DNA of 48,024 nucleotides. Source: Chiloscyllium plagiosum. Taxonomy: Eukaryota. The notes under the pieces are model-generated. The model was not told the DNA's origin, did not search any database, and worked only from the letters and a program-made list of their open reading frames with translations. Position 1 is the stretch's first letter, and every line of letters starts with the position of its first letter. Position numbers and translations under genes: made by a program. The stretch is taken from positions 6,025,961-6,073,984 of the forward strand of contig NC_057753.1 in NCBI RefSeq assembly GCF_004010195.1. The letters are read 5' to 3'. Shown here in pieces: positions 25,037 to 35,184 of this stretch.

Positions 25037-25106
25037 ATGCATGCTCAGCCAAGAGGTCTCACATATGCTATTTTTTACACAGCACTTGCAGCTATTGCGA
25101 TCCCAG
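25037..25106 (+). CDS. Exon 1 of a class A GPCR (probable G-protein coupled receptor 139-like): MHAQPRGLTYAIFYTALAAIAIP+G
   Basis: ATG at 25037 has A at -3 (acaacaATGc) and an in-frame upstream stop (TGA at 25004). It encodes a hydrophobic first half of TM1 and ends at a canonical donor CCAG|gtaaag (gt at 25107). The phase-1 junction G|TT (Val) joins in frame to exon 2, giving ...IAIP-V-NVVAVVIL with the conserved TM1 Asn. Confidence 0.85.
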
Positions 25107-25347: not shown

Positions 25348-25822
25348 AAGGGTTTACGAGGATGTTGCCTGCTATGGAAGGTGCTAGCTATGAGGAGAGA
25401 TTGTGTAGGTTAGGTTAATTTTCACTAGAAAAAAAGGAGATTGAGGGGGGACCTGATTGAGGTTTACAAAATCATGAAGGGTATAGACAGGGTGAATAGA
25501 AACGAGCTTTTTCCCAGGGTGAAGGATTCAATAACGAGAGGTCATGATTTCAAGCTGAGAGGTGCAAAGTTTAAGGGGGATACACGCGGTAAGTACTTCC
25601 CACAGAGGGTGGTGGGCGTTTGGAATACTTGCCAGCAGAGGTGGTAGAAGCAGGCACGGTAGATTCATTTAAGATGTGTGTGGACAGATGCATGAGTAGG
25701 TGGGGAGCAGAGGGATACAAATGCTTATGAATTGACCGACAAGTTTAGACAGTTCATTCGGATCGGCTCAGGCTTGGAGGGCCGAAGGGCCTGTTCCTGG
25801 CCTGTAGACTTTCTTTGTTGTT
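25348..25822 (+). mobile_element. Young CR1 3' fragment in the GPCR intron, same subfamily as 2095-2899
   Basis: RGDLIEVYKIMKGIDRV...TRGHDFKL; close nucleotide similarity to about 2415-2885, including the 3' UTR. Confidence 0.92.
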
Positions 25823-26139
25823 GGCTAGAGTACCATCTACTACTCTTTCTTAATTGCTTTGGAGGAAACCTTAGTGAGCGGCTACCTTGAAGCATTGGAT
25901 TCCACTTTGTTTTGATACATTCAAAGTAATGTTCAGGACAGCCTTCTCGAACCATAACCATACACCGGCATAGTTTGAAGTTAGGATTCTCTATGGTTAG
26001 AGAAGGGCCTTGCAGTTTATATTTCGTATTCAACTACTGCATTTCCTCTTTTTGTTGACTTTGTTTGAAGGTGTAGAACAGGCTAAAGTAACTTATTGAT
26101 TAGTTACCCTTGCAGAGGGTAGCCATTTCTAATATTGTG

Positions 26140-26392
26140 GAGAAAGTGAGGTCTGCAGATGCTGGAGATCAGAGATGGAAATGTGTTGCTGGAAAAGCGC
26201 AGCAGGTCAGGCAGCATCTAGGGAACAGGAGAATCGACGTTTCGGGCATTAGCCCTTCTTCAGGAAACTTTCAAAACGTATCACGCGGTATCTGGTTTCC
26301 TGCAGAAGGGCTAATGCCTGAAACGTCGATTCTCCTGTTCCCTAGATGCTGCCTGACCTGCTGCGCTTTTCCAGCAACACATTTCCATTTCT
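26140..26392. mobile_element. Penelope-like fold-back element (inverted pseudo-LTR pair) with 17-bp TSD and hammerhead motif
   Basis: Arms 26171-26268 and 26295-26392 are reverse complements with 3 differences. The direct repeat ccatttctaatattgtg lies at 26123-26139 and 26385-26401. The minus strand of the left arm reads CTGAAGA-a-gggc-taat-gccc-GAAACGTC. Confidence 0.9.
26234..26263 (-). ncRNA. Minimal hammerhead ribozyme motif (Penelope type)
   Basis: CUGAAGA core, perfect stem II GGGC-UAAU-GCCC, then GAAAC and GUC. Stems I and III are very short, so activity is unproven. Confidence 0.6.
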
Positions 26393-26934
26393 AATATTGT
26401 GCGTACATTATATTAATGCTGGATAGAGAATGTGTTAGCTTGTATGCTAATCAATCTGCTTATTATGAAGATTCTAAATTCATTTGCTAACAAATGTCTT
26501 TAGAAACTGTATCATTCAGATTTATGCCTACATCTGTCAGTGCTTTTTTTTCTGATATATTGAAATTCATGTTTTGGGACATATCTTACACTGTGTGGGG
26601 AATAATCAGTGATTTATTGAATCCATGATGAATTTATTAATGGTTTCTAAATCGTTTGAAGTTTTCATATTATCATGCATTTTCTTGTCTACATGAGTTT
26701 AAATATGATTTTCATTTCTCTGTTGTATTCAGTCCGTTAAGTTTCACCTTAGTTATTTCTATATTTCCTAATGCTGCAACTGAAAGCTATCAAACATCAG
26801 TGTAAGAATTTGTTTTTTTTTTAGCCCAGTGAATGAGGCTCTGTATGATTTGTAGAAACTTTATGTAATACAGATCGCATATAATACTTCATCGTGAAAT
26901 CTATTCTCAACTGTTTGTCTCTTTACTTTCACAG

Positions 26935-27836
26935 TTAATGTTGTAGCAGTTGTGATCCTCTACAGAGGAATGTGTGGTCTTTCAAAACGTATTACGCGGT
27001 ATCTGGTATCTATGGCAATTACAGATCTTCTGGTCATTATCACTGCTGTGATATTAAACCGCATTCCTGGTATTTATTTTCCAGGGAGTTTTCTGTCCAT
27101 TACTCCCGTGTGTAGTGTGAGCACTACATTGATTTATGTCTCCAGAGACAGTTCTGTGTGGCTAACAGTCACTTTCAGCTTTGACCGATTTGTAGCCATA
27201 TGTTATCATAAGGTAATGATAAAATATTTCACCGAAAAAACAGCAACTTTGGTAATAGTAATAGTCTGTGTCCTGAGTTGTTTAAAAAATGTCCCCTGGT
27301 ATTTTATTCATGAACCTATCTACACAATTGGTAGCACCCCATGGTATTGCCGATTAAAAGGTATACGCTATACTTCAGTTGAATGGAGAGTATTTGATTG
27401 GTCTGACCGTATTTTAACTCCATGTCTCCCATTTCTTCTGATACTTCTGTTCAATGCTTTCACTGTCAGGCATATTCTTGCAGCCAGTAGAGCCCGAAAA
27501 AGACTCATGATCCACAAAAAAGAATGCAACAAAAGTGATCCCGAGATGGAGAGCAGGAGAAAGTCCATCGTTTTACTTTTTGCCATCTCTGGCAGTTTCA
27601 TCCTGTTGTGGCTGACATACATTGTACACTTTATGTATGAACAATTTACAACTGACAAACAAGTCAATGGTTTCACCGACCCCAAATTCATTTTTCGTGA
27701 ATGTGCAAATATGCTTCAGCTTTTGAGCTGTTGTATAAACACTTTTATTTATGCCGTGACTCAGAGTAAATTCAGGGATCAATTAATTAACATGTTCCGA
27801 AGTCCACTGACTCAAATGGGTAACTTGCTCAAATAA
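26935..27836 (+). CDS. Exon 2 of a class A (rhodopsin-like) 7TM GPCR, probable G-protein coupled receptor 139-like; spliced product 323 aa
   Basis: A polypyrimidine tract and acceptor (tttgtctctttactttcacag|) end at 26934, followed by an open frame to TAA at 27836. Motifs: TM1 N, TM2 MAITDLL, TM3 Cys (PVCS) and FDRF (DRY variant), ECL2 WYC, basic ICL3 (ESRRKSIVLL), TM7 NTFIY (NPxxY variant), helix 8 (SKFRDQL). No stops or frameshifts. Confidence 0.93.
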
Positions 27837-33285: not shown

Positions 33286-33720
33286 TCACCGAAATGAGAA
33301 GAATTCAGCGAGGCAGGAATGGCGGCCTGGAGATCAGCCTTTCGAAAGGGCTGGTGATGTCAACACCAGGCCAAAGTGATCTCAGCAGTGGGTGCTCGAG
33401 TTGTACAATGGCTGCTTCGATCAAACCGAGAGCATGTTCAATGAAAGGAAACCAGATTAGGCATTAAAGCTGATCTCAGAAACAGGGGAGTGCTGATCGT
33501 ATCTATAAATTTGATGTTATCCAAAATCTGTTGCCCATGTCTTCACTCACAAGTCCAGATCCACTGTCACCCCTGTGATCACTAAACAACACTGGCTTTA
33601 GTCAAGGAAAGTCTTAATTAAAAGTTGTCATTCTTATTCTCAAGTACACTCCCTGTCCTTGGCCCATTGTCAGTGTTAAAGAGAGAACTGAATTCAGATG
33701 AATTGGCAGGTTTTGGAACA

Positions 33721-34347
33721 CTCCAGTTTCAGATTCTGCCTCGACTCCCAGCTCCACCCACACCAGATCCCAGCTCCCAGCCCTGCCGAGTTTTCACCAT
33801 CCCTCCAGACCTCCCCCTCACTGAGGACGAACGATCAGTCCTCAGCAAAGGACTCCCCTTCATCCCCCTCCGTCCACGCATCAATGAAATTAATACACGC
33901 CGTGAAGTCGAACACTTCTTCCGCCGCCTCCGCCTCCGAGCTTACTTTCACAATCAGGACTCCCGCCCACCTTCCGAGGACCCCTTCGCCCACCTCCAAC
34001 ACACTGCATCCACCTGGACACCCCGCGCTGGCCTATTACCTGCCCTCGACCTCTTCATTTCCACCTGCCGCCGGGACATTAACCGCCTCAACCTGTCGAC
34101 CCCTCTCCCCCACTCCAACCTCTCACCCTCACAACGCACAGCCCTCCAATCCCTCTACTCCAATCCCAACCTCACCATCAAGCCAACGGATAAAGGGGGC
34201 AGTGGTAGTCTGGCGCACTGACCTCTACACCGCTGAAGCCAAACGCCAACTCGAGGACACCTCTTCCTACTGCCCCCTCGACCATGACCCCACCCCCCAT
34301 CACCAAACCATCATCTCCCAGACCATACAGAACCTCATCACCTCAGG
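33721..34347 (+). mobile_element. Young internal fragment of a Penelope-like ORF (N-terminal/pre-RT region) flanked by a 14-bp direct repeat
   Basis: ERSVLSKGLPFIP...FFRRLRLRAYF...SNLS...TIKPTDKGG/AVVVW (PLE DKG motif, one frameshift at about 34200). C-rich with CpGs retained. caggttttggaaca occurs at 33707-33720 and 34344-34357. Confidence 0.9.
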
Positions 34348-35184
34348 TTTTGGAACAAGCCAGATGGCACTGACGGGAGGAGAGGTTTCTTAATTTGATG
34401 AAGCATTTTGTGATTGCATTGTTTGACTGATTTATCGATGAGGTTCCTCAATACACCAGTGAAGTGTGATGTATACAATAACGAGATATTTCGACGTGGC
34501 CTCTTTCTATGGTTTAGTTGTAGTCACGTTTGAGTTCCAACCATGTTTTAATCGTTATAACAGTGTGCAGCTACATAGTGAAGTGAATATAAAGTGACCA
34601 TGTATTCAATCACTGACTTCTATTAAATATTAACTGAATAAAACATCTGACAGTTGCGTGGCACTTTGATTTCTGCTCAACAGTTTTGCCCACAATTAAA
34701 CCTGAATGAATCTGTTCGACTTGCATCTATTTCCAGCTCTGATGATTCAGAAAGTTCCACTCAAACATATACTTTATGCCGAAATGCTGCTGATTGGGGA
34801 AGATGATTAAAAGTTATTAAAAAAGTCCCCCTCCCTAAAAATAAACAAGTTGTGAGACACATTTCAGGAGGGGAAACAAACTTATCACTGAGTATGTCTT
34901 CACAGCTTCATTCAGTGAGATAAAGACAAGCAGCAAGATTGGATAAGCATATGGATGATAATGGAATAGCATAGTTTCGATGAGCTTTACCATTTCTTTC
35001 ACAGGTCAGCACAACGAAGGGGGGTTGAAGGGCCTATAATGTTCTATGCTCTACCCCATCCTGATACCCTCCCAAAAGGACGAGTATGCAGTTTTCCCGA
35101 CTCATGCAAACAGCCATTTACCAAATCATGCGATTAACGGTTTCAAATAGAGTCCCACTTTTGTCATATAGTCACTCCCTCGGA

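Follow-up and report, generated by a model that had tools for sequence, protein, structure and literature searches.

A fold-back element in an intron of a G protein-coupled receptor (GPCR) gene of Chiloscyllium plagiosum carries at its centre a 29-nt copy of the second exon of that same gene, and comparable copies of neighbouring DNA recur at the centres of other hairpins of the same Penelope subfamily across the genome. The element occupies positions 26123-26401 of the window, by which we mean the whole stretch of 48,024 nt that was analyzed. The copy probably arose when the two ends of an insertion were joined by a repair polymerase that briefly copied nearby DNA, and the captured centres are likely to be a recurring scar of how such insertions get sealed, rather than a regulatory device.

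The hairpin in the receptor gene and the source of its centre

The element consists of two Penelope pseudo-LTR ends placed head to head and flanked by a 17-bp target-site duplication (TSD), whose two plus-strand copies (26123-26139 and 26385-26401) agree at 17/17 positions. The left TSD is followed by the long arm, a pseudo-LTR end in reverse orientation (26140-26266, minus strand) that includes an extra tail of ~30 nt (26140 to ~26170), and then by a single additional base at 26267, which the junction analysis assigns to neither the arm nor the exon template. The captured copy of exon 2 forms the hairpin centre (26268-26296, plus strand), and beyond it lies the short arm, a tail-less pseudo-LTR end in direct orientation (26297-26388, plus strand) whose final 4 nt overlap the right TSD. 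As an inverted repeat, the two arms are 96% complementary over 101 nt (26168-26268 and 26295-26395) with 26 nt between them, and their inner portion holds 2 differences in ~94 positions. Folding of the element gave -209.5 kcal/mol (z = -26 against 200 shuffles). The order TSD, inverted pseudo-LTR, exon piece, direct pseudo-LTR, TSD, which an earlier sequence-only reading had proposed, is thus borne out, with the refinement that a tail of ~30 nt is present on one side.

The long arm is identical (127/127) to the 3′ ends of two longer copies, L132 and L145. In two others, L200 and L198, the pseudo-LTR follows coding sequence for a reverse transcriptase (RT) and a GIY-YIG domain; the matches to RVT_1 in L200 (E 1.5e-7) and to GIY-YIG in L198 (E 1e-4) both lie just above the curated cut-off, and C-x2-C is present between the two motifs in the L198 translation. 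An unmasked full-length copy of the element was not seen among the copies examined. Judging from these relationships, the arms are the pseudo-LTR of an endonuclease-positive Penelope element, in agreement with the origin first suggested for them. Elsewhere in the window, at 33622-34393, there are open frames without a Pfam match that we take to be similar to the N-terminal portion of a Penelope ORF.

A search of Rfam with the hairpin returned 6 matches at E up to 1, which were only hairpin-shaped and all below curated scores; no hammerhead family was among these six. By eye, the long arm shows what we take to be a minimal hammerhead core, which the short arm has in changed form. The arm read in sense within the host pre-mRNA differs at 26299-26330 from the opposite arm by 1 base in the presumed hammerhead-like core and by 1 base in its stem; the opposite arm has an intact core, on the antisense strand.

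The hairpin sits inside a predicted 1828-nt GT..AG intron of a rhodopsin-family GPCR gene with two predicted exons. Exon 1 (25037-25106, plus strand) has 70 nt (phase 1) and a GT donor and would splice in frame to exon 2 (26935-27836, plus strand), which begins after an AG acceptor and matches Pfam 7tm_1 (E 3e-23). The two exons together would encode an open protein of 324 aa, which presumably belongs among receptors resembling the GPR139-like family. At least 150 matches to exon 2 were found in the genome, and a large share of the 150 receptor matches listed falls in a dense receptor gene cluster on contig G000:C44. The same intron also contains, at ~25350-25820, a piece of a very abundant repeat (very high read depth), which looks to us like a LINE 3′ end of the CR1 type.

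The centre matches exon 2 at 26979-27007 (plus strand) at 28/29 positions on the same strand, 711 nt downstream from start to start, whereas the second-best match in the window reaches 19/29. This confirms the match reported from the letters alone, for which a chance of about 1e-6 had been given; that figure was conservative, since we estimate the chance of a 28/29 match within the window at ~3e-11. The lone mismatch is, as had been stated, at a third codon position: Ile is encoded by ATT in the exon and by ATC in the centre. A search of the 3.56-Gb genome for the 29-mer with up to 2 mismatches, which scores the best candidates only, returned the centre and exon 2, and the 19 nearest paralogs agree with the centre at 18-24 of 29 positions. 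Because this search returned the 29-mer only in the loop and in the exon, with the paralogs at no more than 24/29, the centre was copied from the host gene, and the proposed origin in the gene's own exon is supported. ATC at the mismatch site is common to the centre and the two closest paralogs, suggesting that the centre likely preserves the older base. A paralog as the source of the centre was considered and rejected (18-24/29 in the 19 nearest; 29-mer returned at two places only), and on the same data the centre was rejected as part of the repeat consensus. A comparison with paralog introns as empty sites gave only an alignment of 71% identity, which is uninformative.

It is hardly credible that the match arose by chance, belongs to a repeat consensus or reflects faulty assembly. 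The centre is absent from the contig pieces listed from other sequencing runs, and the contigs of run X2 enter the element by 21 and 19 letters from the two flanks, where the bridging standard is 31 letters; the repeat arms swamped the tables, and neither a piece across the centre, nor an empty-site joint, nor an entry for position 26993 was among those listed. Against an artefact, however, stand the chance estimate, the return of the 29-mer at only two places in the genome and the 24 other loci with the same pattern described below. Furthermore, mis-assembly of reads from the exon, which has ATT, would not yield the ATC that the centre shares with the two closest paralogs.

Local capture across the genome

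Hairpins were identified by exact 15-nt motifs of the inner arms, and the counts are accordingly lower bounds: at least 401 hairpins have centres of 0-14 nt, many of them just AAT, ATT or AATT among the 50 listed, and at least 110 have centres of 15-45 nt, giving 511 together. The strict set comprised all 71 same-subfamily hairpins with centres of 20-45 nt, each with up to 5 kb of flank on either side as far as the contig reached. The test for templates in this set covers the range of 20-45 nt, the rest of the 110 being 39 hairpins with 15-19 nt, and the search overall extended to centres of ~55 nt. In 46/71 the centre is made of element sequence alone, and in the remaining 25/71 it holds at least 6 other bases. 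Ten of these 25 testable centres match their own flank above all 70 control flanks, and 13/25 reach a p value of up to 0.05. Eight of the ten are solid, and the two others (L039 and L184) are marginal, being 1 point above the best control with a template more than 3 kb away. No significant template was found within 5 kb for 12/25. Detectable captures thus amount to 8-13 of the 511 hairpins, or ~2%, as counted from centres of 20-45 nt.

This frequency derives from the 71 hairpins only, since the enriched set consisted of 80 centres hand-picked by eye as non-element, 20 of them from the strict set and 60 others. They were drawn from the hairpins listed, which included 100 of 131 in one list and 100 of 155 in another. 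Here, 25/80 centres scored above all controls, where ~1 would be expected, and 33/80 had a p value of up to 0.05, with no significant template within 5 kb for 47/80 of these hand-picked centres. L055 was dropped from the 25, its match being element sequence, which leaves 24 captures. The template of L109 is a common repeat, so that this centre ties with one control flank and is not counted as significant. Captures without any difference from the template include those in L049 (38/38, 2407 nt away), L041 (26/26, 1343 nt), L075 (28/28, 630 nt) and L096 (46/46, 179 nt). The guess that local captures recur is therefore supported, both in the strict set (10/25) and in the enriched set (24/80). The centre of L048 (4979-5017) is 35/36 identical, in inverted orientation, to a Penelope copy that belongs to another family and lies 176 nt from it; this template is masked.

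Distances between arm and template range from 109 to 2407 nt at the 24 loci, with a median of ~507 nt, and 22/24 templates are within 1.5 kb (p 5e-10 against a uniform distribution). At 586 nt from the arm, the template of the window copy is typical of the captures. Templates are found on both sides of the hairpins, 18 in direct and 6 in inverted orientation at the 24 loci (19 direct with the window copy), and the captured lengths are 13-52 nt, window included. No very close significant template was seen in the strict set, for which the nearest flank is largely unmasked. The captured pieces differ from their templates at 13 positions in 625 nt, and the centres of L040 and L052 look like patches of two local pieces. 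Of the 50 junctions, including those of the window copy, 26 abut or overlap the arm, and among these 26, microhomology of at least 2 nt is present at 17 (p 1e-7) and of at least 3 nt at 13 (p 1e-9). The window copy itself has 0 nt of microhomology on the right and the one additional base on the left.

We also investigated the nature of the templates. None of the 25 other loci (the 24 captures and L109) has a Pfam-recognisable coding exon at its template: 17 reading frames cover 13 of the templates with 0 Pfam hits, and no frame of 70 aa is present at the remaining 12, although this check by Pfam frames without annotation could miss small exons. Likewise, templates are not enriched in repeats (5/26, compared to 53/208 random flank positions). 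The proposed check for exon enrichment thus found none, with the window copy the only coding case seen. The capture of an exon looks like chance proximity, with nothing needed beyond distance, and is probably inconsequential for the receptor gene.

Two pairs of hairpins have a centre in common. L096:4785-5120 and L116:4785-5100, at unrelated sites 3.3 Mb apart on G000:C4, share a 46-nt centre at 45/46 positions; the template is near L096 only (179 nt), and L116 has a truncated short arm and 320 masked bases. L179 (G000:C6) and L181 (G000:C10) have an identical, complex, element-derived centre of 44 nt within different flanks. These cases suggest that hairpins are likely to be re-copied at times together with their centres, and some of the centres that lack a local template may have come about in this way.

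The sequence-only reading had gone further, and speculated that the hairpins might record local sequence in a spacer-like way and present gene-specific loops as regulatory RNA. The very stable fold (z -26) would suit a selected system of this kind, as would the two hairpin pairs with one centre at unrelated sites, from which occasional transcription and re-copying of hairpins appears likely. Nonetheless, a detectable capture is present in only ~2% of hairpins, and the templates show neither exon nor repeat bias, so that a spacer-like record is not supported. A regulatory loop fares no better, since the centre is sense in the host transcript, the paralogs differ from it at 5 or more of the 29 sites, and no Rfam family reaches its curated score. 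No RNA run was among the sequencing runs listed as containing the sequence; in the one RNA run consulted (X21, ~2% read) the exon was without reads and no signal was specific to the locus, and the reads on the arms were indistinguishable from other copies. We therefore regard a selected recording or regulatory system as very improbable.

Proposed priming and joining of the insertion ends

The 3′ ends of 28 longer copies fall into two main groups, with 15 at 86-95 nt, 10 at 123-125 nt and 3 shorter. Among the 71 hairpins, exactly one tail is found in 58, two in 0, and none was detected in 13. A TSD of 11-18 bp flanks 46/59 one-tailed copies (window included), and in 20/46 of the copies the short arm shares at least 3 nt with the target, where ~6% would be expected. 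The two clusters of 3′ ends and the one-sided tails fit two independent priming events. In vitro, a lizard Penelope element cleaves and extends both strands and starts reverse transcription at two sites that bound the tail (PMC11167929). In L135 it is the tail-less end that has the longer interior, so this end cannot have arisen by folding back and copying the arm with the tail. Such fold-back synthesis is accordingly disfavoured as the only way in which the short arm arises. Eleven further tail-less direct ends have no inverted arm within 1.5 kb, in sequence that is partly masked.

We propose that the endonuclease of the element would nick the two strands ~13-18 nt apart, and that each nick would prime reverse transcription, one at the end of the tail and the other ~30 nt further in. 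The two cDNAs would mostly stop at the same point, and because they have the same sequence, their tips could not pair except through 1-4 nt. Most ends would then be joined directly at this tip microhomology and some would first be extended by copying of the arms, while in a few percent 13-52 nt would be copied from DNA 0.1-2.4 kb away before joining. The polymerase would most likely be of the polymerase-theta end-joining type, acting on resected or looped flanking DNA. The exon would have been copied because it was within reach, which implies no function. The model would place the copying at the moment of insertion.

Joining of this kind is consistent with the 401 hairpins that have centres of 0-14 nt and with the 46/71 longer centres that are a patchwork of element sequence only. 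The signature of polymerase theta comprises direct and inverted templated insertions, patches made in multiple rounds and microhomology, and its templates are typically within 30 bp, with distal ones making up <0.1% of repair (PMC7165422). Several observations count against end joining: the junctions of the window copy lack microhomology, the templates lie as far as 109-2407 nt away, and 12/25 strict-set and 47/80 hand-picked centres have no significant template.

The polymerase could instead be the Penelope RT itself, which would jump off its RNA to DNA close by or to the nascent pre-mRNA, copy 13-52 nt and join the other end. Template jumping with an added nucleotide is a property of non-LTR RTs, and the window copy, with no microhomology and one additional base, would suit it; its template is also exonic and on the sense strand. 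R2 proteins are described as jumping between templates and capturing extra RNA templates (PMC11371274). However, the templates are found on both sides and strands, 0/25 of the others are in a recognisable coding exon, they are repeats as often as random flank is, and several centres look two-piece (L040 and L052), and we consider such a jump unlikely. The earlier proposal had left the choice between an RT and a repair polymerase, and between nearby DNA and pre-mRNA, open; a repair polymerase copying nearby DNA is now favoured, and a pre-mRNA template is less likely than a DNA one. A broader idea, that the telomerase-like RT of Penelope samples DNA up to ~2.5 kb away and writes a locus tag into hairpins that are then re-copied (compare L096 to L116), is rather unlikely. 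If such RT tagging were true of all subfamilies, there would be a large set of small mobile hairpins spreading tags of their birth sites, some of them exonic.

A later origin of the centres would require that a perfect palindrome was inserted and that cleavage later opened its tip, either in a cruciform or where a fork had stalled, after which the tip was patched with copied local DNA. Long palindromes are known to break and rearrange at their centres, the 401 copies with centres of 0-14 nt are possible substrates, and an identical microhomology signature is predicted. On the other hand, the arms are mostly intact to the same pivot, and the divergence of the captures (13/625) is similar to that of the window copy's arms (2/~94), which weakly suggests that one age fits both. 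Repair after insertion thus appears quite unlikely, and joining of the ends by a repair polymerase at insertion remains our preferred reading.

Comparison with known systems

Endonuclease-positive Penelope-like elements have in common with these hairpins an inverted, 5′-truncated pseudo-LTR, a one-sided tail of 30-40 nt, a TSD, and an RT with a C-terminal GIY-YIG domain (PMC8557442 and PMC3846280). The accessible part of PMC3846280 also reports that solo pLTRs with TSDs in a few cases enclose captured sequence that is non-coding and unrelated, gives no source for it, and attributes junction palindromes to self-priming. The inverted arm, the one-sided tail, the TSD and sourceless captures between solo pLTRs are thus known already. 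Here, the sources of the centres are traced to local DNA with a reach on the kilobase scale, and the captures are a real, recurring and mechanistically informative feature. In the available text of PMC8557442, PMC3846280 and PMC11167929, no locally templated centre is described, whereas here the source is traced at 24 loci and in the window; a search of the mostly freely accessible literature found no paper on locally templated Penelope hairpin centres or their kilobase reach.

The completion of inverted Penelope insertions is described as unresolved (PMC8557442 and PMC11167929). The hairpin centres are a natural record of this last step, and they speak for two separate priming events and a subsequent join by patchwork. 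Captured centres also tag single copies, making source and daughter hairpins traceable.

The centres share with the templated insertions of polymerase theta (TINS) short direct and inverted patches, several rounds of copying and microhomology, but TINS templates typically lie within 30 bp (PMC7165422), and the centres here form a distinct class with a median of ~500 nt. The range of up to 30 bp fits the 46/71 element-only centres, and not the window copy (586 nt) or the 24 others. Similarly, junction microhomology as seen with polymerase theta is found in the population (13/26 with at least 3 nt, p 1e-9) and not in the window copy.

R2 elements form 'snap-back' 5′ junctions, in which the 3′ end of the cDNA primes DNA-templated synthesis on the cDNA or, more rarely, on the nearby target. 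In contrast to the Penelope hairpins, these involve a single cDNA at a fixed rDNA site, and no palindromic insertion with a captured centre is described in the accessible text (PMC11371274).

In somatic L1 integrations, local genomic DNA from outside the element is copied in during integration, which duplicates a segment (22 instances among 3,598 insertions considered; bioRxiv 10.1101/2024.08.27.596794), and L1, like the Penelope model, involves twin priming at both nicks (the same preprint and PMC11702581). The L1 templates are under 250 bp and typically lie within 15 bp of the site, compared to pieces of 13-52 nt from 109-2407 nt away in the hairpins. The captures described here differ, moreover, in being at the centre of a palindrome and in an assembled genome, where the L1 cases are somatic. 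Their reach is measurable, with a median of ~500 nt and a maximum of 2.4 kb, far beyond the 15-30 bp usually reported for L1 and polymerase-theta patches, so that existing in vitro and cell systems can be used to test the model.
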